A stretch of DNA of 64,000 nucleotides, taken from NCBI GenBank assembly GCA_963801355.1, contig CAWDEM010000008.1, positions 832,001 to 896,000 on the forward strand. Direction: 5' to 3'. The DNA is from Ignavibacteriota bacterium. GTDB taxonomy: Bacteria > Bacteroidota > Ignavibacteria > UBA10030 > UBA6906. Position numbers and translations under genes: made by a program. The notes under the pieces were generated by a model. It was not told where the DNA came from. It worked only from the letters and a program-made list of their open reading frames with translations, and did not search any database. Each line of letters opens with the position of its first letter. Position 1 is the first letter of the stretch. Of the stretch, positions 10,674 to 35,060 are shown one piece after another.

Positions 10674-10733
10674 ATTATCAAACAAGAGTCACAAAATGAA
10701 TCCGCCGAAAGCATCAAAGAGTAGTTAATCCCC
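10674..10733 (-). promoter_or_regulatory. Conserved island promoter motif, copy 1 (upstream of the GH36-like gene)
   Basis: + strand ATGAATCCGCCGAAAGCATCAAAGAGTAGTTAATCCCC. GATAAT -10 on the - strand. Confidence 0.65.
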
Positions 10734-10758
10734 GTTATCTGTGCTGCTGGAAGGTTTG

Positions 10759-13700
10759 TCAATTGCCCATGCGCACGACGATCCGATGCTTGATGAAATC
10801 GCGACCGAGAGGAATCACCCCGCCTTTCATTCGCTGCCCGTCCATTTCCACCCAGGAGATTCCCCGCTCGTAGTGTTCCGGATTCTCGACCTGTATTGCA
10901 TACACCGATTCACCGTGACGGTAGCTCATCTGGAAGCCATCCCACCATCCCGGAATGACCGGGGTGAAGCTCATGGTCTCTCCACGCACCTGAAGCCCCA
11001 GTATCTCTTCAACCCAAGTACGATACATCAACGCTGCCGAGCCTGTGTACCAGGACCAGCCACCCTTGCCTATCCTTCCGGGCAAGCGGTACACGTCAGC
11101 CGCGACCACATAAGGCTCAATACCGTAACGCCACACCGTTTCCGGATCGCGTGCATGCTCAATCGGGTTCAGTATGCGCATCATGTTCGCCGCACGGGTG
11201 CCATCCCCGCTCCGCGCGATGGCAATGGCGAGCCACAAGGCAGCATGGGTATACTGGCCTCCGTTCTCGCGTACACCCGGAGGGTATCCCTTGATATATC
11301 CTGGCGATAGCTCCGTCTTGTCAAAGGGAGGCTCAAAGAGAAGCACAAGCTTGTCTTCTTCGCGAACGAGATTCTTCCAGGCCGATTCCAGTGCTTTTTT
11401 CGCCCGGTCGCTGTCGGCAGCACCGCTGATCCAGGCCCAGGATTGCGGAATCGAATCGATGCGTGCTTCCTGATTTACCGAAGAACCGAGCGGGGTCCCG
11501 TCGTCGAAGGTCCCACGGAGATACCACTCCCCATCCCACGCAAAGCCTTCGACATGCTCAATCAAGATCTTCCGGTCTTGAAGATATGCCAGACTTAGAT
11601 CCGGCCTGCCCATCTCTGTAGACATCTCGGCCATGCCCTTCAGCACATCAACCAGGAACCACGCAAGCCAGACGCTCTCGCCCTTACCTGCGGCCCCTAC
11701 AAGATTCATCCCGTCATTCCAGTCGCCCGTTCCGATCAGGGGCAATCCGTGGGACCCTGACGTGTGGCCGCGCGTGACGGCACGCCGGCAATGTTCAAAG
11801 AGCGAGGCGTGTTCCGATGAGTTCCCCGGAGATTTCAGGCTCTCGTTCTGGTTTTTCTCCAGCGGTGGCGCATCGAGGAACCCGACCATCTCGTGGAGAA
11901 TTGAGACATCCCCCGTAATTCTGACGTAGTGCGCGGCGACGTATGGAAGCCAGAGGAGATCATCGGAGATCCGCGAGCGGATTCCCGCGCCACCCGGGAC
12001 ATGCCACCAGTGCTGGACATCGCCCTCCGTGAACTGGCGGCCTGCCGCGAGCAGAATGTGCGCTCGCGCCAGCCCGGGTTGCGCGTACAGCAAAGCCATC
12101 ACATCCTGCAATTGATCGCGGAAACCAAACGCACCACCTGACTGGTAGAAGCCCGAGCGTCCCCAGAGCCTGCAGGCGAGCGTCTGGTAGAGCAGCCAGC
12201 GGTTGATTAAAAAGTCAACGGCAAGTTCGGGAGTATGCACCTGAACCACGTCGAGCCGCTCGTTCCACCAGGCTTTCGTTTGCACGAGCGCGGCCTTAAC
12301 CACTGTATTCTCACGGTACGCAAGCACGAGCGCCCGGGCCTTGTTCAACGACGGGGCCTGACCGAGCACACACGTGATTTCCACATTCTCGCCAGGCGCC
12401 AAACGCACGGTGGTCTGCAATGCAGCGCAAGGGTCCAGGCCCGCTCCTGTCCTCCGGGAAAGCCCGGTGCGCTCCATCGCCGCCGGGTTTACCATCGAGC
12501 GGTTACGACCAAGAAACGCTGTGCGATCACCGGTGTAGGATTCCGCCGGCAGGCTCAGGGCCGCGAACGCCACACTGTCCGAAAAATCAGGATGGTAGTA
12601 GTTGTGCGCGATCATTGCCTCGACTTCGTCATCCCAGTCGGTCACGACGTGGTTCTGGGACGACTCCCGGAACTCGCCCAATGTCCATTCCACGTAGTAC
12701 GTCAGAGACAGCTTGCGTGGCCTGGCCGAGTCGTTTTTCAACAACAGGCGCTGGAGCTTCACCGGCTCGCCCCCCCCATCATCAACGGGCACGAAGACCG
12801 TCAGTTCGTGTTCGATACCGTGGCTGTTATGTTCGAATACCGAGTACCCCGCTCCATGTCTTGCGCGGTAGTCCGTTCCCTCGCGGATAGGTGAAGCGCA
12901 CGGCGTCCAGTAGGCTCCTGTTTCCTCATCGCGAATGTACAGTGCTTCGGAAGGTGGATCCGTCACCGGGTCGTTTGACCATTGTGTCAGGCGATTTCGC
13001 TGACTGTTGCCCTGCCAGGTAAACCCGGCACCTGTCTCGCTGATGAGTGTACCGAAGCCCGGGTTGGCAATGATGTTGACCCAAGGCATGGGCGTGTTCA
13101 TTCCCGGACCAAGATAGACAGCGTACTCATTCCCATCGGGAGTAAAACCGCCGATGCTGTTGAAGTAAGGAAGTTCCATGAAAGGGAGCGCAGCCGCGGG
13201 ATCACGGGAATCCCGTTTTGAAGCGATGGGCCCCGGTGTCTCGGGGATTTCAATCGAGACGCCCAATTGCTGCTGTAGAGTTCCACGAGCCGCCACCATC
13301 ACTGTACTTGCCACAGCCTGCAGCAGTGTGAGGTCTTCCTCCGGAATCATATCCGCGCTGCGCAAGAAGATTCCCCCAGGCCGGTCCACCCCGGTAGTGG
13401 CCGAATGCGATTGGATCAGTCGCTGGAGTTGTTCATGCAACGGGCGCTCGTAGCCACGGCTCTCTTCGTTCAGAATTACCAGATCGGTTGTGAACCCGTG
13501 CATGCGCCAATAGGTATGTGCCTGGAGCATCTGACGGACCAGGCTCATGTCCTCCACTTCGCCGATGGCGACAAGTGCAATCGGGACGTCGCCCGAAATC
13601 CCGTAGGTCCATAGGCCGGCCTGTCCCTTGCGGTTTTCTGCGATGCGTTCCGCCGCCGCGCGCAGGAGGAGATTCGGAAACAGCAGATGGCTCGCCAGCT

Positions 13701-19914: not shown

Positions 19915-20069
19915 CCCTGGTCCTCATGGACGTGGAGAGAAAGAGTGTGCTGAAGACCGGGGACCCCTTCAGGTTCAAGAATCTGCACCACGTGATGGTC
20001 CTTGCATACAGTGCATGGAATTACTCCATCCTACGACGGAGCCTTGCATTTCCGGTCCGGGGGCAACGG

Positions 20070-20327: not shown

Positions 20328-20388
20328 GTTGCTCTCTCCTTTGTTGGTTGGGCATATTGCCCGTTCAGTGAGGCAGTGTGGTTGTTAT

Positions 20389-21315
20389 TCATCCCCTAAG
20401 TGCGGCCAATTGTTTGAACAGCTCGAATTCCTTTTCAGTGAGATGCTCCGGCACCTTGATATCTACTTTCACGAATAGATTTCCGAACTCATTCTTCCTG
20501 CCATAGACCGGCATCCCGAGCCCCAGGAGCCTGAGTTCCGTACCGTTCTGTGTTTCTTTCGGAATATTCATTTTTACCCAGCCCTTCAGCGTTTCGACCT
20601 GCGTCTTCCCTCCCAAGAGAGCCGTATACAGATCGACTGAGATCGTGCGGTGGAGATCGTCTCCCCTGCGGAGAAACACAGGATGAAGTGCAATCCTGAT
20701 GGTCAGATAGAGGTCGCCGTTTGGACCGCCGTTTCTTCCGGCGCCCCCTTTGCCTGCGATCCTCAAGACCTGCGTGTCCACAACCCCCGGTTTGATGGTC
20801 ACTTTGATAGTCTGACCATGCAGCTGGATAAGCCGGGTCGTGCCATGATAGGCTTCTTCCAGCGACAGGGTCGTTTCAGCTTCGAGATTCTCTCCTGTAA
20901 CCGCGGCGCGTCCGCCCCCCCGTCCCCTGCCACCACGTTGTCCAAACAACAATTCAAACAAATCTCCCACACCCCCGTCACCGAAGGTTTCATCGAATTC
21001 TTCGCGACTCACCCGGCGCCCTTGCCCACCCTGACCTGCCGCATATTTCGACCAGTCAAATCCTCCCGGCTTCCCGCCGGTTTGTTCGTACTGCTTCCAC
21101 TCCGCGCCAAACTGATCGTACTTTTTCCTTTTCTCAGGGTCGCTGAGAACTTCGTTCGCTTCGTTGATTTCTTTGAACTTCTCTTCAGCTGCTTTGTTTC
21201 CCTTGGTCTTGTCGGGATGGTGTTTCAATGCAAGCTTGCGATATGCTCTTTTGATGTCTTCCGGCGTAGCGGTCTTTTCGACGCCAAGCACTTTATAATA
21301 GTCTTTGTAGGTCAC
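20389..21315 (-). CDS. cbpA: DnaJ-class co-chaperone, CbpA-like (J domain plus C-terminal domain, no Zn finger)
   Basis: KDYYKVLGV...HHPD...[18 protein letters not shown] region, no CxxCxGxG repeats. Confidence 0.85.
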
Positions 21316-21416
21316 TTTCTCTCGGCTTGCCCATCATTATTGTGCCACTTGCACCTGCGCCGGGCGCAACAATTCGTCATTCCAGAGATACCCTTGACGC
21401 AGGACCGCGGCCGGCG

Positions 21417-21830
21417 TTAGTCGAACCGCAACGTCGAGGCCATGGCTTCAACCTTGTCCCGTTCCAGTTTCCACGCGTCCTCGCGATTCTCAAGAGCCGT
21501 CGCTTCCTTCTGTGCGTATTCTTTGTATGCTTTATTCGTCGTTGCGAGTGCTTGCTTCAATGCCGGCAGCTGCGTGGCCGGGACTTCTTCAAGCTCACAA
21601 TGCACCACAAGAAAGCCGCCGTCGATGTCCGCTTCTGCCGTCTGATTCAGCGTTTTCCATTCGCGGTCAAAGATCTCGCACCATTCCGGTGGCGGATGTC
21701 CTGACAGCTCAAAATACACGTGATACACCGTATCCGACCCGACGTCTTTGCGGGTTTTCTCGGTGTTCATTCTCTTGATGAACATATCAGGTGCGGATGG
21801 AACCTGAGTGTCTTTTGGCTTGTCGGTCAT
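21417..21830 (-). CDS. Hypothetical protein (137 aa)
   Basis: AGGAGG RBS. Globular N-terminus and coiled-coil C-terminus. Lies directly downstream of motif copy 2. Confidence 0.7.
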   Translation of the reverse strand: MTDKPKDTQVPSAPDMFIKRMNTEKTRKDVGSDTVYHVYFELSGHPPPEWCEIFDREWKTLNQTAEADIDGGFLVVHCELEEVPATQLPALKQALATTNKAYKEYAQKEATALENREDAWKLERDKVEAMASTLRFD

Positions 21831-21895
21831 GTGGTACCTCCTGTGGCCCGAAAGGAGCGATTCTTGATAAAGAAAGCACCAAAGTGAGCACTGTA

Positions 21896-21956
21896 AGCAT
21901 ACCGGATATTGCTGCGGAATGAATCACCTGAAAGGATGAAAGAGGAGCTAGTCCCC
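21896..21956 (-). promoter_or_regulatory. Conserved island promoter motif, copy 2
   Basis: AGCATA-17-ATGAATCACCTGAAAGGATGAAAGAGGAGCTAGTCCCC (-10 TATGCT on the - strand). Confidence 0.75.
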
Positions 21957-21992
21957 GGAATTCCACCAAATGGCCCGGTATGCGCCGGGAGG

Positions 21993-22682
21993 TTATCCTT
22001 CAAGCACTTTCTGGATGGATTTCTTGTGACCGAACAGCACCAGAACATCTCCTCGTTCAACGATCGTTGTTGGTGCCGGCACGCCTATGATCGACTCAAT
22101 CTCCCGCTTTCTGAGACCGAGGAACTGTGGCTTTGTTTCCATCCGTTTGATCGTGATAAGACTGATCTCGAAACGTTGTCTGAGGTCCAGTTCCTGAATG
22201 GTGCATCCGATGAAAGATTCAGGGGCAATTGCTTCGGCAATCGTGAAATCGGACGTGAAAGCAAACGAATTGACCACCTTTTCGAAGATCAGGCTATTTG
22301 CAAGCCGTTCTGCTGCCTCGGCTCCAGGAAGCACGACTTCCTTGATCCCGAGATGATTCAAGATCTGTTCGTGCACTGCCGTTGTCGCTCGCACGATGAT
22401 CCGCTTAACACCAATCTTCTGCAAAAAAGTCACAGTGAGGAGCGAGGCCTCGAAATCTTCACCGATACCCACAACGACAGCATCGTATTCATCCAGGCCC
22501 TGACTGCGTAGCGCCTTTTCATCCGTCGCATCCAGCTGCACAGTGTGCGTCACGAGTTCTTTTATGTCGTCGAGCTTCGGGAGATTCTCGTCGATGGCGA
22601 GAACTTCCGCACCCTGCTGTGCCAACCGCGCAGCAAGACGGTCTCCAAAATACCCCAGGCCGATGATTGCGAATTTCTTCAT
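21993..22682 (-). CDS. trkA: TrkA/KtrA potassium uptake regulatory subunit
   Basis: IIGLGYFG Rossmann motif, RCK-N and RCK-C domains. Confidence 0.9.
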   Translation of the reverse strand: MKKFAIIGLGYFGDRLAARLAQQGAEVLAIDENLPKLDDIKELVTHTVQLDATDEKALRSQGLDEYDAVVVGIGEDFEASLLTVTFLQKIGVKRIIVRATTAVHEQILNHLGIKEVVLPGAEAAERLANSLIFEKVVNSFAFTSDFTIAEAIAPESFIGCTIQELDLRQRFEISLITIKRMETKPQFLGLRKREIESIIGVPAPTTIVERGDVLVLFGHKKSIQKVLEG

Positions 22683-22697
22683 GGGATGGTCCGTATT

Positions 22698-24518
22698 TTA
22701 TGTAATGAGAATATTCTCCTCTGTGTAGCCATATCGTCCTTCCGTGCGCCGGGGGGTCACGGCAATCACAATCGCAAGAAGGCCGACGCGTCCTGCAATC
22801 ATGCAACCCGTGATGATCAGTTTCCCCGGCAGCGTGAGTTGTGGCGTGATGCCTGTCGAAAGGCCGACCGTGCTCAGTGCAGAGACAACTTCGAACAGGA
22901 GCTGTTCGAAGGAACTCTTTTCAGTCAGGAGTAGGCAAAACACCGCTCCGGTCACAAAACAAAATGAGAGCAACACAGTGGTAAATGCCTTTGTGATGGC
23001 AATTTCGGGCACACGCTTCCGGAAGATCTCAACATTCTTCCTTCCTGACGCAATAGCGTGAATCTTGAGGATCGTAAGAGCTGCAGTCGTTGTCTTGATG
23101 CCGCCACCTGTTGATCCTGGAGATGCGCCAATCCACATGAGCACAATCAGTACGAAAAGCGTCGGCACGGTACATGAGCCGATGTCGAGGATGTTGAAAC
23201 CGGCTGTCCGGGCTGTTACCGAATTGAAGAGAGATGCAAACATCTTGTCGGTGAAGGAGAGATCGCGCAGAGTGCCGTTCCCTTCAAGAAGAAGAAAACC
23301 CAGTGCACCACCGGCCAGCAGAACAGCGGTTGTGAGAAGCACAACCTTTGAGTGAAGGGACAGCCTGCAGCGAGCGCGGGCGTTGACGGCACCCACCATC
23401 TTTGTGCCGCTGTTCGCGAGAACGGGAAAGCCAAGCCCGCCGAGAACAACCAGTATCATGATGGTGGACAAGAAGCCTGTGTTGGCATGAAGAACGCTAT
23501 CCGCGAGATTGTCAGTTGTGAGAGTGAAGCCGGCATTACAGAACGCTGAGATTGAGTGAAACACGGAAAACAGCAGCGGATCTCCTTCACCAACAGACCA
23601 GGCATTACCGATGAATTCATACAAGGCAAAAGCTCCCATGCCCTCGATCGCGAACGTGACGAACGCAATCTGCAGAATTGTCTTCTTAATCGCCCCCAGA
23701 CTGTCTTCACCAAGGAGCGTTTGCATGTTTGAATACTCCTTCAGGCGAGCTCCTCCGCCGAGAACAAAGGCGAAGAATGTTGTCAGCGTCATGATGCCCA
23801 ATCCACCGACCTGGATTAATACCATCAGCACCACATGCCCGAACGGCGTGAAGTTGGTCGCTGTGTCAACAACAATGAGTCCGGTAACACACACAGCGCT
23901 GGTCGCAGTGAATAGCGCGTCAACAAATGAGATGGAGTGAGAGACGGTTGCCCGAGGTAGAAGCAGCGCAACTGTCCCTACGGTGACCAGGATGAGAAAG
24001 CTGAGAAGGATAAGCATAGATGGTTGAACATTGCTCGTCATCGCGCGCTTGCCGTAACGCAAGAGTGCCGGCACAAAGGAAAACGCAACGAATACTTGAG
24101 TGATGGCGAGGTATATTCGTGCAAGGGCGCCGGGAGACAATTGAGAGTCAAAGGAAAGCAATAGTGCTTCAATCTGAGTGGAGAGCAGAAGGTACAGCAG
24201 AATTGACATCAGCAACGCGTGCTCAAACCATCGTGAGCGGATATACTCAAGATGCTTTCGGGCCAATCCGAGTTTCAAGGCGCCTTGCAGCACAAATCCG
24301 TAGAGTATGGCTATGTTAAGACATTGAGCTCGCTCCTCCCATTCGGCGGAAAGGTAGAAGCCGTGCTGTGCAAGCAATACGCCAAGTGCAGCCAGTGCAA
24401 GAAAGAAGACTCCAACATTGATGATGCATACAAACTGTTCCCGGTGCCGGGCAATAAATGAAACGTCTTCCCTGCGTTCAATGTGCCGCCTGAGAAATCG
24501 AATAAGGAGTTTCGACAT
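22698..24518 (-). CDS. trkH: TrkH/KtrB potassium transporter membrane subunit with N-terminal TM extension
   Basis: SAVCVTGL, QVGGLGIMT, SAFCNAGF, RTAGF, GSTGGGIKTTT, SALSTVGLS selectivity-filter motifs. Confidence 0.9.
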   Translation of the reverse strand: MSKLLIRFLRRHIERREDVSFIARHREQFVCIINVGVFFLALAALGVLLAQHGFYLSAEWEERAQCLNIAILYGFVLQGALKLGLARKHLEYIRSRWFEHALLMSILLYLLLSTQIEALLLSFDSQLSPGALARIYLAITQVFVAFSFVPALLRYGKRAMTSNVQPSMLILLSFLILVTVGTVALLLPRATVSHSISFVDALFTATSAVCVTGLIVVDTATNFTPFGHVVLMVLIQVGGLGIMTLTTFFAFVLGGGARLKEYSNMQTLLGEDSLGAIKKTILQIAFVTFAIEGMGAFALYEFIGNAWSVGEGDPLLFSVFHSISAFCNAGFTLTTDNLADSVLHANTGFLSTIMILVVLGGLGFPVLANSGTKMVGAVNARARCRLSLHSKVVLLTTAVLLAGGALGFLLLEGNGTLRDLSFTDKMFASLFNSVTARTAGFNILDIGSCTVPTLFVLIVLMWIGASPGSTGGGIKTTTAALTILKIHAIASGRKNVEIFRKRVPEIAITKAFTTVLLSFCFVTGAVFCLLLTEKSSFEQLLFEVVSALSTVGLSTGITPQLTLPGKLIITGCMIAGRVGLLAIVIAVTPRRTEGRYGYTEENILIT

Positions 24519-24578
24519 GTCGGTCTCGCCGTGAGAGGGAGCACACGCCGTGCGATCCTTGCGGGCGATCCTTGCATG

Positions 24579-24639
24579 AGTGTATCGATTCGCGCTTCGA
24601 AATCATATCCCCTAGAAGGATGAAATAGTAGCTAACCCC
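24579..24639 (-). promoter_or_regulatory. Conserved island promoter motif, copy 3 (drives trkH-trkA)
   Basis: AGTGTA (TACACT on -)...ATCCCCTAGAAGGATGAAATAGTAGCTAACCCC. Confidence 0.7.
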
Positions 24640-24653
24640 ATCGATGTCATAGA

Positions 24654-24714
24654 GGGATTAGCTACTATTTCGATCTATTGGCCGATTACAATTGCAGGGG
24701 GCCCTCCGTATACT
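24654..24714 (+). promoter_or_regulatory. Conserved island promoter motif, copy 4 (inverted; drives the + strand gene)
   Basis: GGGATTAGCTACTATTTCGATCTATTGGCCGATTACA-18-TATACT, the reverse-complement orientation of the consensus. Confidence 0.75.
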
Positions 24715-24861
24715 TCGTCCTGGCGATTTACGCAATGATGTGTTTTGGAACTACCCACGAACACTGTTGTTCCGAACGATCCCGGAGGCCAAAGTGGAAG
24801 CACCGCGCAACAGCGAGACCTACGACACACACCAATGTGATTGCCGGCGGGGCCACATGCA

Positions 24862-25221
24862 ATGCATACGCTCAATTCAACTACGCGCCTCATGATTCTT
24901 GCTGTACTGGGGGTTGTGGCAGGAGCAATCATGACGTCGTCTCTCCATGAAAAGGTGGCGGGGAACGAAAAGAGAACACCAGGAGTCCAGGCAGAATACT
25001 CCAGCGCGTGGCAGACGCTCAAGAGCAAATCCGAGGCCCAGATCAGGGAAAATGGAAGGAAGATCAGCAAGTTCAAAACGCAGAGGGAAAAAGGGAGTAG
25101 AGCGTTTCGTCCGACCTACGACAGGCGGGTGGCGGAGCTTGAGCGAAGGAACATCGCCCTCCAGGTCTCGCTCAATGACTTTAAGGGCGACAGGAGTGAT
25201 GCACGGGCGGAGTTCAAATAG
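24862..25221 (+). CDS. Exported/anchored coiled-coil hypothetical protein
   Basis: N-terminal hydrophobic segment, then WQTLKSKSEAQIRENGRKISKFK...VAELERRN coiled coil. Preceded by motif copy 4. Confidence 0.7.
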   Translation: MHTLNSTTRLMILAVLGVVAGAIMTSSLHEKVAGNEKRTPGVQAEYSSAWQTLKSKSEAQIRENGRKISKFKTQREKGSRAFRPTYDRRVAELERRNIALQVSLNDFKGDRSDARAEFK

Positions 25222-25248
25222 TCTGAAAAGGCCTTCGCCATCTCTGTA

Positions 25249-26397: not shown

Positions 26398-26433
26398 ATC
26401 GAACGCCTGAAATGTCCTCTCAGGGTAATGTTG

Positions 26434-26898: not shown

Positions 26899-26918
26899 TG
26901 ATCACTGTTCACAGTATG

Positions 26919-26978
26919 AATCTAGAGGAACACCTGTCATAATGAAATCGGCCAAAGGAACGAATGGGTAGTTAATCC
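26919..26978 (-). promoter_or_regulatory. Conserved island promoter motif, copy 5
   Basis: AATCTA (TAGATT on -)...AAATCGGCCAAAGGAACGAATGGGTAGTTAATCC. Confidence 0.7.
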
Positions 26979-27100
26979 TTTCGCATAGCACGGGGAACGT
27001 GGTTCCGGCTTGCCCGGGCTTATGATTTTGCTCTTCGCTTGCCCTGAACCTCTACCGACTCCGAAGGATCGCCGGAACCACGTAGGGATTTGCCCGACAG

Positions 27101-27250
27101 TCATGCGGCCCTTCGCCCACTAATCAAGTTAAACACCACAGCGATGACGGCGAGGACCAGAAGCACGTGAACGAAACCTCCCATGGTGGTGGAGGTGACC
27201 AGTCCTAAGAGCCACAGGACCAAGAGAATGATTGCGATTGTGTACAGCAT
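27101..27250 (-). CDS. lmo0937-family (DUF5670) small membrane protein, 49 aa (below ORF-track cutoff)
   Basis: Hand translation MLYTIAIILLVLWLLGLVTSTTMGGFVHVLLVLAVIAVVFNLISGRRAA. AAAGGA RBS. Confidence 0.9.
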   Translation of the reverse strand: MLYTIAIILLVLWLLGLVTSTTMGGFVHVLLVLAVIAVVFNLISGRRAA

Positions 27251-27327
27251 GGTAAGTATCCTTTCTGTGTTAGACAGCTCCCGGATGTCGCTCTTGTGAA
27301 GAGCGCCGTTCGTATGAGAACTAATGA

Positions 27328-27388
27328 AGTATACAGGAATGAACTTCAGGATGAATCGGCTGAAAGGATGAAAGGGTAGTTAATCCCC
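27328..27388 (-). promoter_or_regulatory. Conserved island promoter motif, copy 6
   Basis: AGTATA-17-ATGAATCGGCTGAAAGGATGAAAGGGTAGTTAATCCCC. Confidence 0.8.
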
Positions 27389-27418
27389 TCCGTTTACGGC
27401 GACTACGTTGCGGTGTTG

Positions 27419-27658
27419 TCATGCCACTTTCTTGAAGTCGATATATCCGCGTTCCACATCCGTGCTGACCAGTTGCACGCGTAGCTCGTGACCGACATCC
27501 ATGCCTTCATAGCCACTCTCCAGTCTTCCTTCAATGGGTGAAGGCAGAAGACGCACCCAGGTGCCTTTGTCAGAGGCGCCGGTGACGATGGCATCGAACT
27601 TCTCTCCGATTCTGTTCTCCAGCAGTATCGCGCGGTGCTCTCCCACGTTTGTTTTCAT
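27419..27658 (-). pseudogene. Internally deleted RNB-family (RNase II/R-like) gene retaining only the C-terminal S1-like domain
   Basis: LLENRIGEKFDAIVTGASDKGTWVRL...EGRL...GMDVGHELRVQLVSTDVERGYIDF is the C-terminus of short RNB-domain RNases. No catalytic RNB domain. ATGA-coupled to the upstream gene. Confidence 0.65.
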
Positions 27659-27870
27659 TTTGATTTCTTTTTGCCAAGGAAGAGAATGCCGGCACCAACT
27701 ACTGCCATTCCGACACCCACGTACGGTTGCCAGTTCACCGTATGCTGCTTATCAGCCGTTATCTCGAGTTCCCCCAGGTCCACAACCTTCTCTTTGGTGA
27801 CATAGGTAAAGCCTGTGTACAGGGTCATTACCAGACCCGCGATGAGGAGAATGATACCGAGTGTTTTCAT
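27655..27870 (-). CDS. Small two-TM membrane protein (DUF3185-like)
   Basis: MKTLGIILLIAGLVM...TKEKVVDLGELEITADK...PYVGVGMAVVG. GGAAGGA RBS. Confidence 0.75.
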   Translation of the reverse strand: MKTLGIILLIAGLVMTLYTGFTYVTKEKVVDLGELEITADKQHTVNWQPYVGVGMAVVGAGILFLGKKKSK

Positions 27871-27896
27871 GCCGATTTCCTTCCTTCTGTAAGTGT

Positions 27897-28967
27897 TCAT
27901 GTTTTTGCCTTATTCGACAACCCCGGAGAGCCCATACGGGAGATCTCAGGTCCGAGCAAAACTGCTATCCATTGTGTTTCTTCATTCTCCTCACAGGCGA
28001 GCTTCAGGGTCATGGTGAGAGGGACGCAGAGGAGTGCACCGACCACACCGAGAAGGCTCCCCCAAACAATCAACGACACGAAGACGACCAGGGTGGACAG
28101 GCCGAGTCTGCTCCCCATGATCTTTGGTTCAAGGATGTTGCCGATTACCAACCCGATCACGAGATATCCCCCCGCCGTAAGGACGGCATGCCCTGGTCCA
28201 AGTTGGAGAAGCGCCACCAGGACTGCAGGGATCGCAGCGACAACAGAGCCCAGACTCGGCACAAAGTGGAGGAGAAACGCGAGAAATCCCCACAGGACAG
28301 GGTAGTCGACGCCCAGAATGACCAGCCATAACGTTGTCAGAACGCCTGCAGCCAGGTTTATCAACGTCTTGATGACCATATAGCGTTTGATGTCGTTGAC
28401 GAACCTCGTATACTGTGGAAACACGGCTTTAGGGTTATCGAGAATAGTGCGGAGCTTGGCCGGAAAGCTTGCGGCTTCGAGCAGGATAAACATCACCGTA
28501 AAGAGAATGACCACGACATTGGAGAGCGCGGAGCTCAGTGCGGTGAACAGGGCGGCGGTGTAGTTCATCAACGCAGCAGGGTTGAGATATCCGAGCAGAA
28601 CTTTGTCGGTGACGGCAATCCCCTTTTGGGCCAGCACCGGCTTGAGCGAAAGGAGCATATCATGTAATCGGGCCTGGTAGACCGGCACTGCATTCGAGAA
28701 ATCGTTGAGCGACGCACCTATGACGGCACCAATACTCATCAGAAGAGCCACGAAAGTTGCCATCACAATTACCACCGCGGCAACTGAAGGGACACCTTTC
28801 CGTTCCATCCAGAGGACCGGCACCGTGCCGATGACAGCGAGAAAACCGGAGACAAGGAACAACACGACCACTGCTTGTGCCTGATAGATTCCCCAGATGA
28901 TAATCACGCATGTTGCCGCGATGATGAGAAGCGGCGTTCCTCGATGAGCCTCGCCCTGATCACTCAT
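27897..28967 (-). CDS. AI-2E family transporter
   Basis: Multi-TM. RYMVIKTLIN, LWGFLAFLLHFVPSLGS, NILEPKIMGSRLGLS, WGSLLGVVGALLCVPLT. Confidence 0.9.
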   Translation of the reverse strand: MSDQGEAHRGTPLLIIAATCVIIIWGIYQAQAVVVLFLVSGFLAVIGTVPVLWMERKGVPSVAAVVIVMATFVALLMSIGAVIGASLNDFSNAVPVYQARLHDMLLSLKPVLAQKGIAVTDKVLLGYLNPAALMNYTAALFTALSSALSNVVVILFTVMFILLEAASFPAKLRTILDNPKAVFPQYTRFVNDIKRYMVIKTLINLAAGVLTTLWLVILGVDYPVLWGFLAFLLHFVPSLGSVVAAIPAVLVALLQLGPGHAVLTAGGYLVIGLVIGNILEPKIMGSRLGLSTLVVFVSLIVWGSLLGVVGALLCVPLTMTLKLACEENEETQWIAVLLGPEISRMGSPGLSNKAKT

Positions 28968-28985
28968 ACTCCCATCCTTCGTCGT

Positions 28986-30374
28986 TTAGAAGCCCACCAC
29001 ATCTCCCACTCCACTGCGAAGTGCGAACCATACAAAGCGTAAGAACGGATCGTTCCGCTGACGCATGTACTTCACTGTGCCGATCTTCACCACACCCGAG
29101 TCATCCGGCACATTCGTCCCGCGGATCTTGAAGGTGTTGGCAATGAATGAAGCGAAGAGGTCGGCGGCACCGTTCTGGCTACCCGTCTTTCTGTCGATGG
29201 CCGCAAGAATCAGATCTCTGTAGACAGCCCGCACGTTACCCCTGGCGTGCCCCGAAGAGACGGTGATATCGAATTGTGCCGACTGAAGGACCCCCGTCAC
29301 GATGCGCATCTGTTCGGCTGTTTCCAGGAACGGATTGAGTGCTCTGATGTCCATCCTGCCCATCGATCCGGAGTATTGGAACGAGAAGGCCGGCGATCCG
29401 ACCGGAATCACCATGTGCACATTCATCGCCCCCTCCTGCATGAACATTCCCTGGGCGTGCACGACAACGGTTGCACCACTGTCTCCCTGATTGGCAATCC
29501 GTTCTGCCAACACCTGCATGCTGTCAAACGAGATGAGGCCCGGTTTCGCACCGACCGCGAACCTTTCTCCGTAGCGCACACGTCCGTTCATGATGCGCAG
29601 GCTATCGACATGAAGAAGTGCCTGCATCGAAGCAAGAATCTCAGTGGGCATAACGGGATATGAAGTGTCATGGGCGGACGGCTTGTCCTTGTTGATCAGC
29701 ACATCGAGGACCGGATCGCGGATGAGGATGGAGCGGGCATCGTAAGACTCCCCTTGCAGGAGTGCGAGGCACGCCACACCTGCCACGCTGCACTGCTGAG
29801 ACGCGAGGCTGAATCGCGTAGCTCTGAACTTACTCCCTCTGAAGAACTCCTCATCGTCTGTCAGCAGATGAAGCTCCAGGACATCAGCCACGATCTCAGA
29901 ATCGGGCGCCGACAAATGCAGACGCTGACAATTGACTCTATAGTTCGACTGCAAGAAGTTTAACGCGATATCGTCTGCATCGATGACGACACCGGCAAAG
30001 TCCTCCGGCTCCAGTTTTCCTCCCCAGAGGAGATGCATCCAGCTGATCGCGCTCACGGAGTACCGCCCGATATTGCCTGAGAAAATGCCATCGACTGTGC
30101 TCAAGGCAACGGAGTCAAGTTCAAAGCGGTTCTGTGCGACGCTGTACTTCATTTCTCCGATGCGTAGCGAGTATGCGGGATACGTTTCAGCAAACGCCCC
30201 GGCAATCCTTGGTTTGATGAATCGATTCACAAAGGGATCAGGGAAGAGCAGCAGAACCAGCAGGCAGACGAGGAGCAGTGCTCCTGCGGCGGCACCTGCA
30301 TACGATGCTCTCTTCAGTAGAGACGGCTTCTGTCGCTCAGCCGTTGAATGCCCGTTCTGCATGAGGTCTATCAC
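28986..30374 (-). CDS. Membrane-anchored beta-rich protein (DUF748/AsmA-like)
   Basis: Single N-terminal TM, repeated beta-strand character, C-terminal FIANTFKI...RQRNDPFLRFVW. Confidence 0.6.
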   Translation of the reverse strand: MIDLMQNGHSTAERQKPSLLKRASYAGAAAGALLLVCLLVLLLFPDPFVNRFIKPRIAGAFAETYPAYSLRIGEMKYSVAQNRFELDSVALSTVDGIFSGNIGRYSVSAISWMHLLWGGKLEPEDFAGVVIDADDIALNFLQSNYRVNCQRLHLSAPDSEIVADVLELHLLTDDEEFFRGSKFRATRFSLASQQCSVAGVACLALLQGESYDARSILIRDPVLDVLINKDKPSAHDTSYPVMPTEILASMQALLHVDSLRIMNGRVRYGERFAVGAKPGLISFDSMQVLAERIANQGDSGATVVVHAQGMFMQEGAMNVHMVIPVGSPAFSFQYSGSMGRMDIRALNPFLETAEQMRIVTGVLQSAQFDITVSSGHARGNVRAVYRDLILAAIDRKTGSQNGAADLFASFIANTFKIRGTNVPDDSGVVKIGTVKYMRQRNDPFLRFVWFALRSGVGDVVGF

Positions 30375-30405
30375 ACTGCTTTCTTTCTCCCGAGACCTGG
30401 ACAGG

Positions 30406-31017
30406 TCAAAGCACGCTCACGAGGGCAGCCAGCCCCGACGCCATGATCAAGACGCCGGCGATTCTGTTGACCCATCGGAGTCCACCCGAGTTCAGCTTCT
30501 TTCTGAAGAATGTGGCAATGGCACCAAGGACCACGAACCAGAGAGATGCTCCCGCAAACACTCCCAGGACAAGAATAGACGCTGAAACGATCTTCATCGT
30601 ATGTCCCAGTCCAAACGCAGCGAAAACAGCAATAAAGGCAAAGATGGTCACCGGATTGGTGAGTGCGAGGAGAAATGCGGAGACATACGACCCCAATTTC
30701 CCCTTGTTGTCGAAGGGGATGATAGGATCCTTACGCTTGGCGCGGAATGTCCTCAGGCCAAGGAACAGAAGCAATACTCCTCCACCAAGACGCAGCCACA
30801 ACTCCTGGCTGGTGATCGCATCCGAGACAAACGTGAGACCGAACGCAGCAATGCTGCCGAAGAGTGCATCGGCGGTGGCAGCCCCAAAACCGACGATGAG
30901 TCCGCGGATGCGCCCTTCTGCGAGCGTTTTGCGTATGCACAGAATGCCGAGCGGTCCGACGGGCACCGCCATCGCAAAACCAATTATCAGTCCTTTGAAG
31001 AAGAAAATCGGCTCCAT
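30406..31017 (-). CDS. LysE family translocator
   Basis: AVPVGPLGILCIRKTL, GAATADA, LTNPVTI, VNRIAG. Confidence 0.9.
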   Translation of the reverse strand: MEPIFFFKGLIIGFAMAVPVGPLGILCIRKTLAEGRIRGLIVGFGAATADALFGSIAAFGLTFVSDAITSQELWLRLGGGVLLLFLGLRTFRAKRKDPIIPFDNKGKLGSYVSAFLLALTNPVTIFAFIAVFAAFGLGHTMKIVSASILVLGVFAGASLWFVVLGAIATFFRKKLNSGGLRWVNRIAGVLIMASGLAALVSVL

Positions 31018-31122
31018 ACTCTCGGTTGCCTGGCGACTGAAGGATCTGCGCTAATTCTGAAGAGACATTCCGCCCACCAACGTCCACATCGCCTTATCGG
31101 TGGCCGAACCGGTAACACTACA

Positions 31123-31148
31123 AGGGACCCGGAATATTCCCAGGTCCC
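31123..31148 (-). terminator. Hairpin downstream of the OmpA-family gene
   Basis: GGGACC CGGAATATTCCCA GGTCCC inverted repeat. Poly-U tail is weak. Confidence 0.4.
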
Positions 31149-31180
31149 GTGTATCCCACCAAGTGCTTCATGCCTGACGA

Positions 31181-31990
31181 CTATTTGGCGACGATGATCT
31201 CAACCCGCCGATTGTTCGCCCGGCCTTCGGCGCTGGTATTTGCTGCAACCGGTCTGTCTTCACCAATCCCGTGCGCTTCAATCATATCACCCGGGTAGCC
31301 ACGAGAGATGATATACGAGCGGACTGCATCCGCACGCCGCTGCGACAGCTCCTGGTTGGAGCTGGAAGAACCCTGGGAATCCGTGTGACCTTCAACGATA
31401 AGCTTCCGGTCTTTTGTCATCAAGAGCGCATCGGCAACCTGGTTCAGCCGTGTCTGCGCCGCGGACGAGAGCTCTGACTTGTTCGAAGTAAACAGGACGC
31501 TTCCCGAGAGCGTAATGACAAGACCGCGAGCTTCTTCTTTCACTGCTGCGAGTTTCGCGAGATCTGCTTGTGCAGTAGCCAACCTTGCGTCTGCCTCGGC
31601 CCGTGCTTTTTGCTCAATCGCAAGGTCCGCTTTCGCCTTCGCTGCAATATCCGCCTGTGTTTTCTCGAGCTCCTTAGCTGCTTTAGCAGCGACTGCATTT
31701 TCAGCGACGGTGGTGGCTAGCGCTTCGGCCATCTTGGCTTTGCGATTCGCGACATAGGCGAGATCCTTCGTACGGAATGACTTAGGCTCGTCCAGGAACG
31801 ACTTCTCGGCGAGTGCAAGAGCCTCTTGTGCCTTATGCAGTTCTGCCGGCACCAATTGTGCCGCCTGCCCCGCACTTGCGTGCTGGTACGCTTGACGTGC
31901 CTCGATGAGCTCTGTCGGGGGAAGGGTAGTGCCGCAGCCAACCAGAAGTCCGGCGCATGCGACGATGATAAGCGATGTGATGGGTTTCAT
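31181..31990 (-). CDS. DUF4398 + OmpA-family lipoprotein
   Basis: Lipobox LVG-C, Ala-rich helical region, VEGHTDSQGS...NQELSQRRADAV...GRANNRRVEI. Confidence 0.9.
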   Translation of the reverse strand: MKPITSLIIVACAGLLVGCGTTLPPTELIEARQAYQHASAGQAAQLVPAELHKAQEALALAEKSFLDEPKSFRTKDLAYVANRKAKMAEALATTVAENAVAAKAAKELEKTQADIAAKAKADLAIEQKARAEADARLATAQADLAKLAAVKEEARGLVITLSGSVLFTSNKSELSSAAQTRLNQVADALLMTKDRKLIVEGHTDSQGSSSSNQELSQRRADAVRSYIISRGYPGDMIEAHGIGEDRPVAANTSAEGRANNRRVEIIVAK

Positions 31991-31992
31991 GG

Positions 31993-32370
31993 CTAATTCC
32001 TTTCACGAGGTAACTGGTTGTCTTTCCGAAGCTGCCGTACCCGCTCAATCGCTTTTGTGGCTTCTGCTTTGTCGGCATCCCCACGCGAGAGTGCTACCGC
32101 CAATTCGCCATCGGCCTCTGCACGCAACAGCATTGATGCAGCCTGTTCCTGCTCGCCTTTCGCTGCAAGTGCTTTAGCTTTCTCCAACCCCTCCTTGGCA
32201 AGTTGCAGATAGAGAGATGCGGTCGGAACAGTCGACGCACCAACCTCCTCAGCGGCACGGATCGCCGATGTGGTAGGCTCCTTGTTGAGCGCGGGGCTGC
32301 TGCCGCAACCTGCGAGCAGCGCACCGAACAGAACACTTCCGGCCACTATGGCCACGGTCAGATGTTTCAT
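31993..32370 (-). CDS. DUF4398 lipoprotein
   Basis: Lipobox LAG-C, SAIRAAEEVGA...ASLYLQLAKE...RAEADGELA. Canonical partner of the OmpA gene. Confidence 0.8.
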   Translation of the reverse strand: MKHLTVAIVAGSVLFGALLAGCGSSPALNKEPTTSAIRAAEEVGASTVPTASLYLQLAKEGLEKAKALAAKGEQEQAASMLLRAEADGELAVALSRGDADKAEATKAIERVRQLRKDNQLPRERN

Positions 32371-32451
32371 TGAAACCTCCTGTTGTGTTATTCTAAAACG
32401 TGAGCTACAAACCCTCCTCTTTCGGTATGGGCTATCTCATGGTCGCGACAT

Positions 32452-32512
32452 AGTGTACCGTTGATTGGAGCGCAATCCAATAGGCCGAAGGGATGATAAA
32501 GTGCTTAATCCC
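32452..32512 (-). promoter_or_regulatory. Conserved island promoter motif, copy 7
   Basis: AGTGTA (TACACT on -)...AATAGGCCGAAGGGATGATAAAGTGCTTAATCCC. Confidence 0.65.
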
Positions 32513-32570
32513 TGGAAGGATAGAAAGAAAGGAGTACTGACATTACGCGGAGACGGGAACGAGGCGGGGC

Positions 32571-33248
32571 TTAGGATTCCCCGTTTTCGAACGAGTGAGT
32601 TGCTATCTGCAGGCGGCTGTGAAGCGCCAACTTCTCGAGGATATTATGCACGTGGCTTTTCACCGTGTAGGTCGAGAGGCTCAGTTGTTGGGCGATTTCC
32701 TTGTTACTCATTCCCTCAGCAATGAGGATGATGATCTCACGTTCACGTCTTGTCATCCGCGTTGCCGAGGACAGTTTGACGTTCCCAAGTCGGACTGCAT
32801 TCTCGACAATATGCGTGAACAGTGATCCCGTCAGCACGGGGGGAAGGATTCTTGTTCCTTTCGCGACGGATCGGATGGTTGCCAGGACCTCACCTATCGA
32901 TGCGTCTTTAAGTATGAAGCCCAACGCACCGGCCTGGACCAACTCGACGATGTCCTGTTGCGACGGAATGAGACCCATCCCGATCACTTTGACCTCTGAC
33001 AATTCACGGAGCAGAGACTTTACAACATTGATACCGTTCGCACTCCGAAGCCCCAGGTCTAAGAGGACTATGTGCGGCTTCAGATTCCGCGCCTGCTCCA
33101 GGGTATCGTGATTGCCCACGGTTGATCCGACGACTCTGAGATCCGGCTGCTTGTCGATGAGCGACTTGATGCCATCGCGCAATATGCGATTGTCTTCGAT
33201 GAGCAGGATCTTTGTCTTCTTCACCCTAATAATCCCTGGATAATGCAC
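32571..33248 (-). CDS. Orphan NarL/LuxR-family response regulator
   Basis: REC domain (LIEDN...LLDLGL...FILKD) and LuxR HTH (MTRREREII...GMSNKEIAQQLSLSTYTVKSHVHNILEKL). Confidence 0.92.
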   Translation of the reverse strand: MHYPGIIRVKKTKILLIEDNRILRDGIKSLIDKQPDLRVVGSTVGNHDTLEQARNLKPHIVLLDLGLRSANGINVVKSLLRELSEVKVIGMGLIPSQQDIVELVQAGALGFILKDASIGEVLATIRSVAKGTRILPPVLTGSLFTHIVENAVRLGNVKLSSATRMTRREREIIILIAEGMSNKEIAQQLSLSTYTVKSHVHNILEKLALHSRLQIATHSFENGES

Positions 33249-33619
33249 GCGAAGATTTCATTCCCCTCATGTACTATGGTACCCCAGTGAATTGTCATTT
33301 TCAAGGGAATTCTTTTGATGACGGGCATTGGTCACATCAGTGTGAGCTGTTATATACCGCGGGGGTACATCAGAAGCGGCCACAGGAGAGGTTCATCACC
33401 CCGAACGCTGTTTATTCTTACTTCCTACGGATCCTCATCTGCTTCTTCCGTTACCACCGTCGTTCTGCCGGCGAAAGGCTACACCATCGCGAAGCGGTTG
33501 TTCTGGAACTTCGAGATCCAGCTTGTGCAAGCCCTTCTCAGAAACCGTGGAGCCCCGCGAAGGGTGGTTTGCTTCACACCCGTTCGCCTCAGACATGTCC
33601 GCCTCCGTCTCCACAGAGT

Positions 33620-33952
33620 CTATCCGGCTCGTTTCGATCGTGCTCGTTTTCTGAGCGGTGTTCTTGAGCTTGCCGGTCGTCGCACAACATGTTTCTGTTT
33701 GTTCAGCGCTTTTTGGGAGGCAATCAACTTGTTGTTGGTCTTCTTCAACAGCGCGACAGTCTTCTTGAACTCATTAACCTGGAGTCTTGCGTCATCCTTC
33801 GCAATCCCGTACTTTTCCTGTAGCTTTCCCACAAGCTCTTCGTATTTGCCGGAAATTGCAGCCAGCTCGTCGTTCATCAGCTTTCCCCACTGGTGCATCG
33901 CTTTCCCCCGTCCCTGTTTCCATTGCCCTTCAATGCGATCCCAGCTCATCAC
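33620..33952 (-). CDS. csbD: CsbD-family stress protein with basic C-terminal extension
   Basis: WDRIEGQWKQGRGKAMHQWGKLMNDEL...ELVGKLQEKYG. Confidence 0.85.
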   Translation of the reverse strand: MMSWDRIEGQWKQGRGKAMHQWGKLMNDELAAISGKYEELVGKLQEKYGIAKDDARLQVNEFKKTVALLKKTNNKLIASQKALNKQKHVVRRPASSRTPLRKRARSKRAG

Positions 33953-33967
33953 ATACCTCCTCTCGAT

Positions 33968-34246
33968 TTATGTATCCAGTCGCTGTGTTACAGGATGATC
34001 CCCGGTGAACAGCGTAACGTTTTGCGGCCATGCAATTCGCTCCGTTGTGTCGATTCCCTTCCAACGGTGCAGTTGAGTTTCGATAGCCGCTGCGGCATTG
34101 GTCTGGAAGTCGGAGATGTACTCTGCTTCAACCCGCTTCCTTTCGCTCTCTTCTTTCTCCCTGGTCTCGCGCCACATCGTACTTGATGCACTTCGCCAGA
34201 CGGGCAGAGCGGCAATCGCAGTGGTGATCGACACGATAGGTTTCAC
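33968..34246 (-). CDS. Hypothetical or degenerate ORF
   Basis: Sits between the two csbD copies and overlaps the upstream stop. No motif recognised. Confidence 0.3.
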   Translation of the reverse strand: MKPIVSITTAIAALPVWRSASSTMWRETREKEESERKRVEAEYISDFQTNAAAAIETQLHRWKGIDTTERIAWPQNVTLFTGDHPVTQRLDT

Positions 34247-34575
34247 GACGGCCTCTTTACTAAGTGGAATGTTTTCCTCACCGGCTTTCCGCTCACCGCG
34301 CGTTCTCTCCCCGCGTCTTTGTGCTCATGCAGGGATTTCTGCAACTGCATCAAACGGCTATTGGACTTCTTGAGGCGCCCGATCGTCTTCTTGAATTCTT
34401 TCACCTGCCGGCTCGCCTCTTCATTCACAATTCCGTATCTCTCCTGTAGCTTTCCCACGAGCTCCTCAAAGTGGCCCGCGATCGCAGCGAGGTCGTCGTT
34501 CATGACCTTTCCCCAATGGTGCATCGCCCTTCCTCTGCGCTGCTTCCACTCCCCCTCCATTTGATCCCAGTTCAT
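34243..34575 (-). CDS. csbD: CsbD-family stress protein, second paralogue
   Basis: MNWDQMEGEWKQRRGRAMHHWGKVMNDDL...ELVGKLQERYG. Start at 34575 after GAAGGA. Confidence 0.85.
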   Translation of the reverse strand: MNWDQMEGEWKQRRGRAMHHWGKVMNDDLAAIAGHFEELVGKLQERYGIVNEEASRQVKEFKKTIGRLKKSNSRLMQLQKSLHEHKDAGRERAVSGKPVRKTFHLVKRPS

Positions 34576-34591
34576 TGGTTTGTGTCCTTCT

Positions 34592-34954
34592 TCACTTTCT
34601 ATCGTTCGCGATTTCTGGTACCGTCGTCGGCATTCCATTGCTCGCACTGGTGGCACCGGAAGTTCTTGAGGCGTTTGCGCCGAGCACTTCCGCGAGCCTG
34701 GCTTCACGAACGGCAACGATGGCGATATGGCGCGCCTGTGACGATATGGGGTCTTTCCGGAAAGCTTCCTCTGCGAGAGCCAGTGTTTCCTGTGCCTTGC
34801 GCAAGTCGGCCGGCGCGAATTGTGTCGCGGGAGTCGCACTTGCGTGAGCGCAAGCCTGTCGCGCACTTATGAGCTCTGCCGGGGGCATGACCGTAGCGCA
34901 GCCAACCAGCATTCCTGCAAAGGCGATCATGAGGAGATGAGCGATGACTTTCAC
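34592..34954 (-). CDS. DUF4398-like lipoprotein (paralogue of the OmpA gene N-terminus, no OmpA domain)
   Basis: LVG-C...PPAELISARQA...APADLRKAQETLALAEEAF aligns with PPTELIEARQA...VPAELHKAQEALALAEKSF of 31181-31990. Confidence 0.75.
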   Translation of the reverse strand: MKVIAHLLMIAFAGMLVGCATVMPPAELISARQACAHASATPATQFAPADLRKAQETLALAEEAFRKDPISSQARHIAIVAVREARLAEVLGANASRTSGATSASNGMPTTVPEIANDRK

Positions 34955-35000
34955 AGTTACATCCTTTCCCTTGGTGCGTCAGGAATTCTAACGCAATTGA

Positions 35001-35060
35001 AGTATACAGAACTGAGCTGCAGAATGAATCGGCTGAAAGGATGAAAGAGGAGCTAATCCC
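35001..35060 (-). promoter_or_regulatory. Conserved island promoter motif, copy 8
   Basis: AGTATA-17-ATGAATCGGCTGAAAGGATGAAAGAGGAGCTAATCCC. Confidence 0.8.

Follow-up and report, generated by a model that had tools for sequence, protein, structure and literature searches.

A conserved box upstream of housekeeping-type promoters most likely marks a stress-protection regulon across Ignavibacteria and is coupled to a NarL/FixJ-type response regulator

Regulators of the NarL family control several well-described regulons at housekeeping promoters. DosR/DevR of Mycobacterium tuberculosis is regarded as the activator of several dozen genes for stress survival, including small heat-shock-like genes, and also regulates its own gene, and VraR binds one conserved site upstream and, once phosphorylated, also a weaker one reaching -35. 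In the alphaproteobacterial PhyR system of the general stress response, the signal is fed in by HisKA_2-type kinases. Sediments, hot springs, anammox reactors and wetlands commonly harbour Ignavibacteria, a class whose gene regulation has, to our knowledge, hardly been described. Here we describe a repeated promoter module in an Ignavibacteriota genome (G000; 4.8 Mb, 57% G+C, 8 contigs), found in a 64-kb stretch of contig C8 (C8:832001-896000, the whole of which is called the window below), and the NarL/FixJ-type response regulator gene at 32571-33248 of the window that accompanies it. The eight copies in the window and six elsewhere in the genome most likely serve as promoters for a stress-protection regulon whose conservation extends over the class Ignavibacteria. 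Judged from the sequences compared here, it is rather likely that the regulator binds the upstream box and activates sigma-A promoters with a poor -35 element, with autoregulation in part of the class.

By analogy, such a circuit would work like the NarL-family regulons at housekeeping promoters, namely DosR/DevR, VraR/LiaR and NarL. Like the module described here, the DosR/DevR sites lie next to or over the -35 element of housekeeping-sigma promoters. However, the operator in Ignavibacteria is unrelated in sequence, much longer (~35 bp) and without a clear 20-bp palindrome, and the lineage, the gene set and the kinase also differ (HisKA_2 here, DosS/DosT there), as does the receiver domain, which lacks the Thr/Ser switch. 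The box resembles the two-site architecture of VraR. VraR and LiaR serve cell-envelope stress in Firmicutes, where each forms part of a three-component system linked in one operon (VraTSR and LiaFSR) and the regulons are small, whereas the present module occurs at no fewer than 14 promoters, has a linked kinase within one genus only and is followed by general stress and osmoprotection genes. In gene content the regulon is like those of RpoS, SigB and PhyR-NepR-EcfG, which also include CsbD, small heat-shock-like, OmpA-like and small membrane stress proteins and potassium transport; in contrast to them, it has a housekeeping -10 and no such sigma gene linked to it, and control is apparently exerted by a DNA-binding response regulator. 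No title or abstract returned by a full-text literature search described such a stress regulon or motif in Ignavibacteria.

The original prediction, which was made from the window sequence alone, had placed eight motif copies between 10.6 and 35.1 kb, and the sequence read-out contains all eight at those coordinates (Table 1). A 23-nt core pattern with up to three mismatches gave 4 matches, compared with 0 in 100 shuffles. An nhmmer profile built from the copies was used to scan the whole genome and returned 14 sites at E<=1.1e-10, while the next match had E=0.032. All 14 are intergenic and point at the gene downstream, as had been said of the eight, and the profile search returned no site from 35.1 to 64 kb of the window, in agreement with the absence reported for that part. 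Modules 3 and 4 stand back to back (window 24573-24722) with their upstream edges ~12 bp apart, forming a divergent promoter pair for trkHA and the sll1863-family gene.

The module consists of an upstream box, GGATTAaCTaC-TTTCATCC-TTyrGnCGATT, followed at a fixed distance by GTATACT. The consensus of the copies in this genome is GGGGATTAACTACTCTTTCATCCTTTCAGCCGATTCAT-N17-GTATACTTCA, and the reverse complement of TTTCATCC is GGATGAAA. For the relatives, 206 distinct sites were collected, those of G000 included, from more than 100 Ignavibacteria genomes. TAnnnT is found at alignment index 58-60 in 180 of the 206 sites, and every other offset has at most 13. The alignment of 71 diverse sites shows TA, TTTCATCC, TT and ATT as invariant or nearly invariant letters of the box, and the spacer sequence between the box and the -10 is variable. 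The near-constant -10 spacing of the original prediction thus stands, with small corrections at 26919 and 10674 (Table 1).

To characterize the -10 element, the tRNA promoters of the genome were taken as a reference. TTGnnn-N17-TAnnnT is present upstream of 25 of 47 tRNA genes (mean 3.2 and maximum 7 in 200 shuffles), all 25 with a 17-nt spacer. Among the tRNA -10 hexamers TATATT is the most frequent (12/25), usually with a G in front of it, and CG stands directly before the hexamer in 13 of the 25 promoters. The GTATACT of the module is one base off this housekeeping TATATT, and by this sequence comparison the module -10 is of the housekeeping (sigma-A) type. The -35 position at N17 is usually poor, with three or fewer of six matches to TTGACA in 154 of 178 sites. 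With the transcription start assumed 7 nt after the -10, the box would extend from about -66 to -33, and it would therefore lie upstream of the -35 hexamer and overlap it. The term class II used for this arrangement in the original prediction is only roughly right: the box does overlap the -35 hexamer, but it also extends upstream of it, and 76 of the 206 sites retain TTG at -35.

The internal structure of the box was examined with several schemes. The dyad ATCCT-TTCAG-CCGAT that had been proposed was tried and dropped, as no clear dyad stood out against controls. A small palindrome around the invariant TA, GGnnyTArnnCC, was rejected: 69.0% of its cells are paired, compared with 68.2% in shuffles (110 of 500 as high), and the control slid by +1 does as well (68.3%); changes on both sides are mildly enriched (21 versus 14.9, a value reached by 9 of 500 shuffles). 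Schemes with three or four half-sites, GATK...CATC...GATT...AATC, were also rejected, with ATC at the fourth half-site in only 32 of the 206 sites. In a search of RNA data, a single run matched, with 7% of the sampled words, and four runs gave short contigs that must come from relatives because they are mostly 90-95% identical (108 of 150 in X1). One of these contigs aligns as far as 26909, leaving 3 further letters unaligned, which is close to the start predicted for module 5; this is a weak hint, as contigs do not reveal starts, ends or levels of transcripts.

Table 1. Promoter modules and neighbouring genes. Positions are those of the window unless a contig is named, and module coordinates run from the -10 end to the upstream edge.
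Feature	Position	Strand	Description
Promoter module 8	35001..35060	-	Box + N17 + TATACT; core profile E=4.5e-11; predicted to drive the DUF4398, CsbD and CsbD-like genes, possibly the regulator by read-through
Promoter module 7	32452..32512	-	-35 TTGGAT, -10 TACACT; predicted to drive DUF4398 and DUF4398-OmpA
Promoter module 6	27328..27387	-	Predicted to drive a DUF5670 small membrane protein gene (27101-27250)
Promoter module 5	26919..26979	-	At the conserved spacing the -10 is TAGATT, with CATACT lying 6 nt beyond; predicted to drive the 154-aa and 382-aa genes
Promoter module 4	24654..24714	+	-35 TTACAA, -10 TATACT; predicted to drive an sll1863-family stress protein gene (24841-25221)
Promoter module 3	24579..24639	-	-10 TACACT; predicted to drive TrkH and TrkA
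Promoter module 2	21896..21955	-	-10 TATGCT; predicted to drive the 137-aa and CbpA-like DnaJ genes; ndvB-like gene downstream on the same strand
Promoter module 1 (weakest)	10674..10732	-	-10 GATAAT at the conserved spacing; core profile E=2.2e-4; predicted to drive a secreted protein gene, ~556 aa
Six sites outside the window	C4:1562463(+), C8:23327(+), C8:274672(+), C8:588534(-), C8:1449721(-), C8:2672847(-)		nhmmer profile
NarL/FixJ-type response regulator (REC + GerE helix-turn-helix)	32571..33248	-	Candidate binder of the module; Pfam domains, co-occurrence, linkage
Hybrid histidine kinase REC-PAS-HisKA_2-HATPase_c	36403..37833	-	Island border; candidate partner kinase
TPR-repeat protein gene	35489..36457	-	Between the kinase gene and the first module
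DUF4398 protein gene	34592..34954	-	First gene after module 8
CsbD-like gene	34243..34566	-	Putative start inside the open reading frame 34243-34866
Second CsbD-like gene	33620..33952	-	Well supported
DUF4398 gene and DUF4398-OmpA gene	31993-32370, 31181-31990	-	After module 7
LysE-type exporter, 462-aa protein, AI-2E family transporter	27897..31017	-	Possible read-through from module 7
TrkH and TrkA potassium uptake genes	21993..24518	-	After module 3
137-aa gene and CbpA-like DnaJ gene	20389..21830	-	After module 2
Cyclic beta-1,2-glucan synthase-like (ndvB-like) gene, 3051 aa	10759..19914	-	GT2 (weak match), glucoamylase-like, GH94

Repetition of this kind could also come from a mobile repeat of the repetitive extragenic palindrome or miniature inverted-repeat type, or from a transcribed RNA motif, and the copies in this genome give the idea some footing: 10 of the 14 are very alike over ~60 nt, and C8:23327 and C8:2672847 are near-identical duplicates, leaders included. 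We nevertheless regard it as scarcely credible. There are only 14 copies, each between genes and facing one, and no terminal repeats or target duplications were noticed. In the more than 100 genomes the box is kept at orthologous and non-orthologous promoters alike while the spacer varies. An RNA element is further disfavoured by the place of the box upstream of the predicted start, by RNAalifold, which found 0 pairs in the consensus of the 71 aligned sites, and by the Rfam search of the window, in which no family reached its gathering score. Instead of the unoriented scatter typical of such repeats, we observed oriented copies with a fixed -10 spacing and, near regulator genes, 162 of 169 matches on the gene strand.

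The regulator and the motif occur together in other genomes. In 40 relatives, the regulator orthologue was defined as a match at E<=1e-65, and the motif was detected with covariance model R1. Regulator matches were bimodal, with either at least 45% identity or ~30%. The motif was present in 19 of 19 genomes with an orthologue and in 4 of 21 without (G002, G007, G024 and G030). One of these four, G007, is 61% complete and has 2 motif matches and a 48% identical homologue beside a motif-like site, and G024 has 1 weak match. We extended the comparison to the phylum with 150 evenly drawn genomes plus G000, using model R2 (71 sites) and regulator profile A2 at E<=1e-60. Among these 151 genomes the motif was found in 18 and the regulator in 13, all 13 within those 18, so that 5 of the 138 others were motif-positive: G030, G107 and three marginal cases (E 5e-4 to 8e-4) from other classes. 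Within the class the distribution is patchy but concordant, with the regulator and the motif in 2/7 and 3/7 genomes of one family (f8), 2/8 and 2/8 of a second (f11) and 1/2 and 1/2 of a third (f16). No test statistic is attached to the co-occurrence because related genomes are not independent.

Linkage was analyzed at the best 80 regulator loci of the species-wide genome collection with a broadened core profile. Nearly all of these loci come from metagenome-assembled genomes, labelled Ignavibacteriae, Ignavibacteriota, Melioribacter or Bacteroidota. The 169 motif matches fall in 72 of the 80 loci, the 162 mentioned above being on the strand of the regulator, and the reversed-sequence control gave 0. 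A module follows the regulator gene within 350 bp in 48/80 loci, as at 32452, where module 7 begins ~60 nt past the regulator stop codon; it precedes the gene within 350 bp in 13/80, and either arrangement is found in 58/80. The position before the gene would be an autoregulatory one. Because of the conservation of the motif, its co-occurrence with the regulator and its linkage to the regulator gene, activator-dependent transcription from sigma-A promoters is largely supported.

In addition, three records labelled Zixibacteria, L106 (CP070824.1), L127 (OY969724.1) and L100, contain regulator homologues with a module-like match right after the gene, which could mean either that the module extends outside Ignavibacteria or that the records are mislabelled.

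Its domains and acceptor residues place the regulator in the NarL/FixJ family. PF00072 matches residues 14-125 (E=1.5e-16) and PF00196 residues 165-217 (E=2.7e-18). Full-length alignment was obtained with VraR (5hev, E=5.1e-35), the closest of the solved relatives, and with NarL (E=3.1e-31); DevR (3c3w, E=1.6e-23) is also among the solved relatives. In the alignment to NarL, Asp64 falls on the Asp of 'lilldl' and Lys114 on the Lys of 'yllkd'. All of 22 homologues keep D64 and K114, and the recognition-helix residues T195, K197, S198, H199 and H201 likewise do not vary among them. A regulator conserved in recognition helix and acceptor would match a conserved operator, and we count this as support. 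In the proposed mechanism, the regulator would be phosphorylated, presumably on Asp64, would bind the ~35-bp box as a dimer or higher oligomer and would bring sigma-A RNA polymerase to promoters that have little strength on their own. The candidate phosphodonor in this genus is the REC-PAS-HisKA_2 kinase encoded nearby.

A paralogue of the regulator, 47% identical, is encoded in the same genome at C4:903486-904130(-). Its clade is 45-50% identical to the regulator and is also present in genomes without the main motif (G005, G010, G012). At 13 loci of this clade the recognition helix is unchanged except in L162, and the two residues before it are VD or VE, not TY. Right after the paralogue gene, in about 10 of the 13 loci as judged by eye, there is a variant box, GGACyAGT...TTCCAwCC, with a -10-like hexamer. 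The letters that distinguish the two types are GGATTAAC in the main-type box and GGACCAGT in the variant, and the variant letters are also present in some main-type sites. A changed helix-turn-helix (HTH) motif travelling with a changed box fits direct recognition of the box by this regulator family. The paralogue and the variant box look like a sister regulon with a diverged operator, and the pair offers a natural specificity experiment.

In G000 there are two variant boxes, preceding radical-SAM genes of 545 and 663 aa. The paralogue gene is followed by a weak variant box, GGACCAGT...TTCCATCC, at C4:903441(-) and then by the 545-aa B12/radical-SAM gene, and the second variant box, at C8:543596(-), stands before the 663-aa gene (loci L156 and L157). 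Homologues of this radical-SAM protein also form a 12-member cluster of open reading frames (ORFs) among the candidates for the first gene after motif matches in relatives.

Several observations speak against activation by this regulator and must be set beside the support. In 22 of the 80 loci, the 350 bp on either side of the regulator gene contain no module. G002, which is 93% complete in 470 contigs, has 3 motif matches and no orthologue, and G030 and G107 each have one strong motif match with no regulator found by the queries used. The motif and the regulator share one island, so gain or loss of that island would give the same co-occurrence even with another binder. Since the sites behind the broadened models were taken from the vicinity of regulator genes, these models could miss variants in genomes that lack the regulator. 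The box has no clear dyad of the NarL 7-2-7 type. The Thr/Ser switch residue is missing from the receiver in the alignment to NarL: Gly92 occupies the position, with either Gly or Asp among the 22 homologues, and it aligns with the Ser of NarL 'vvfSvs', which we take to be NarL Ser87; signalling may thus be atypical. Finally, since TTG is retained at part of the -35 positions, an activator may be dispensable at some of these promoters, in which case the regulator could have a modulating or repressing role there.

Some of these points would be explained if the box is a real sigma-A operator but another protein binds it, or if the regulator represses or fine-tunes promoters that fire unaided. 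Co-inheritance of one island could underlie both the co-occurrence and the linkage, the TTG-bearing sites and the two genomes with a strong motif match and no detected regulator agree with this explanation, and ~32 of the 206 sites have an extra ATC-type half-site just before the -10, where a bound protein would block the polymerase. Against this explanation, the regulator is the sole DNA-binding protein among the island genes scanned in the window, and the changed HTH start of the paralogue comes with a changed box beside it. In 13 of the 80 loci a module stands immediately before the regulator gene, a typical place for autoregulation. The box is found upstream of the core promoter, which is the usual place of an activator, and the -35 is poor at 154 of 178 sites. 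We therefore consider this explanation unlikely, though it deserves to be taken seriously.

The general stress regulons of other bacteria mostly depend on alternative sigma factors, and the module could accordingly be a promoter of the extracytoplasmic function (ECF) type, in which parts of the box serve as -35 and -10 and the regulator gene is merely a member of the regulon. The genome has 19 sigma genes with PF04542 matches, which by lengths and sequences include a single RpoD-like gene (285 aa, C4:1314476-1315333) and a single FliA-like gene (252 aa); most of the other 17 are of ECF size as judged by length, so candidates for such a factor exist, and no gene of RpoS or SigB size was seen. 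In some relatives a variant module is followed by an ECF sigma gene, with 5 candidate ORFs forming one cluster (for example L063:9029-9673(-), on contig C24 of G017). However, none of the 19 sigma genes adjoins one of the 14 sites, so that the autoregulation usual for ECF factors is lacking, and the housekeeping-type hexamer at a fixed distance in 180 of the 206 sites would be left unexplained. On inspection of alignment A3, the conserved blocks are not spaced as an ECF -35/-10 pair. An ECF promoter, which the original prediction had named as a way in which it could fail, is accordingly disfavoured, and we hold it to be quite improbable. A FliA-type reading, with GCCGAT as a sigma-28 -10, was rejected by inspection against the sigma-28 consensus: the spacing to any TAAA-like -35 is ~4 nt too long, and the genes are non-flagellar. 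The ECF sigma gene at L063:9029-9673 resembles the G000 sigma gene C4:200313-200954, which may reflect a regulatory cascade.

With these alternatives weighed, binding and activation by the regulator remain the preferred explanation. The original prediction, a stress regulon controlled by an orphan sigma70 class II activator, holds for the promoters, the housekeeping -10, the co-occurrence and the linkage; its orphan status probably does not hold, its class II arrangement is only roughly right, and binding and activation are what these results would predict.

The regulator is probably not an orphan in G000, as the gene of a REC-PAS-HisKA_2-HATPase_c kinase borders the island on the strand of the regulator (Table 1). 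This domain order is unusual. A kinase homologue is encoded on the same contig as motif sites in G001-G004, which are all four other members of the genus sampled. Full-length kinase was found only in G002 (92% identical) and G003 (61%); G001 and G004 have a shorter form of ~382 aa, which matches in two pieces and leaves query residues 160-269, spanning the PAS domain, unmatched. A role of this kinase as a universal partner was rejected, since only receiver-domain matches were found outside the genus. In G028 and G040, other kinases are encoded a few kb from the regulator gene.

The genes that follow the modules fit osmotic, desiccation or general stress protection, which would also be the likely inducing signal. 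Module 8 is followed by the DUF4398, CsbD and CsbD-like genes, then by a 372-bp gap and the regulator gene. An ORF of 227 aa at 33315-33998(+) has an odd composition and no family match and overlaps the CsbD-like gene on the opposite strand, so it is probably not a gene. Homologues of the 462-aa protein encoded beyond module 7 stand directly after a module in 3 loci of relatives. The cyclic beta-1,2-glucan synthase-like gene, separated from the CbpA-like DnaJ gene by 475 bp, may be a member of the regulon by read-through, and an ndvB-like gene stands directly after a module in two relatives (L121, L126). Module 1 begins 24 nt past the stop codon of this 3051-aa gene, and on inspection the product of the gene after module 1 has a twin-arginine-like signal. 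The 137-aa, 154-aa, 382-aa and 462-aa proteins gave no usable family match (the 382-aa protein has a weak clostripain match, E=0.0013).

The six sites outside the window precede a second DUF5670 gene with an SLT transglycosylase gene, a gene for a 170-aa protein, genes for a 238-aa protein and a Kef-type cation/proton antiporter, a KaiC-like ATPase gene and a duplicated locus. The KaiC-like ATPase (C8:274888-276633(+), locus L152) matches PF06745 in two stretches (E=7.3e-108), is the sole two-domain copy in G000 and is 70-80% identical across genera. A KaiB partner was searched for as PF07689, and G000 has no match at E<=0.01. In several relatives the KaiC-like gene stands directly after the regulator gene and a module. 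The duplicated locus encodes a 60-aa ORF and a 116-aa protein read as small heat-shock-like, for which the only Pfam match is weak (PIH1_CS, E=0.0055). Its two copies, C8:23327-26200(+) and C8:2672847-2669100(-) (loci L151 and L155), are near-identical, each with a conserved leader of ~290 nt, the 60-aa ORF, the 116-aa gene and a DUF4440 gene. Further downstream they diverge, which suggests a recent segmental duplication.

The same genes recur after the module in relatives. The first candidate ORF matched a G000 regulon protein at 112 of 199 sites, in a sample biased toward the island because the loci were chosen around regulator genes. The counts are 41 for CsbD, 19 for DUF4398 with or without OmpA, 15 for the regulator, 11 for the KaiC-like ATPase, 7 for DUF5670 and 6 for the 154-aa protein.

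The module, the regulator and the KaiC-like ATPase might together be the master circuit of a general stress response without a sigma switch in Ignavibacteria, in which the KaiC-like ATPase would provide feedback or timing through the atypical receiver and HisKA_2 kinases would be lineage-specific inputs. We put this forward tentatively and regard it as doubtful. If true, it would add a third general-stress architecture to those based on sigma switching (RpoS, SigB) and on partner switching (PhyR-NepR-EcfG). The underlying concept, a response regulator at housekeeping-sigma promoters, is an ordinary one. What is in hand is a ~35-bp operator at a fixed place in the promoter, a single candidate regulator and a conserved target list comprising CsbD, DUF4398-OmpA, DUF5670, small heat-shock-like proteins, the Trk and Kef potassium systems, the KaiC-like ATPase and beta-1,2-glucan synthase. 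With a defined operator, regulator, targets and paralogue, the stress response of a class dominated by uncultured members becomes testable in vitro, and regulon prediction is feasible in hundreds of metagenome-assembled genomes.

In relatives, the module was also seen before an ice-binding-like gene (L065:15962-16789(-)), a gene for a 765-aa glycosyltransferase (L058:4490-6784(+)) and DUF932 genes (L063:7738-8907(-)), which hints at lineage-specific cold or desiccation members of the regulon.

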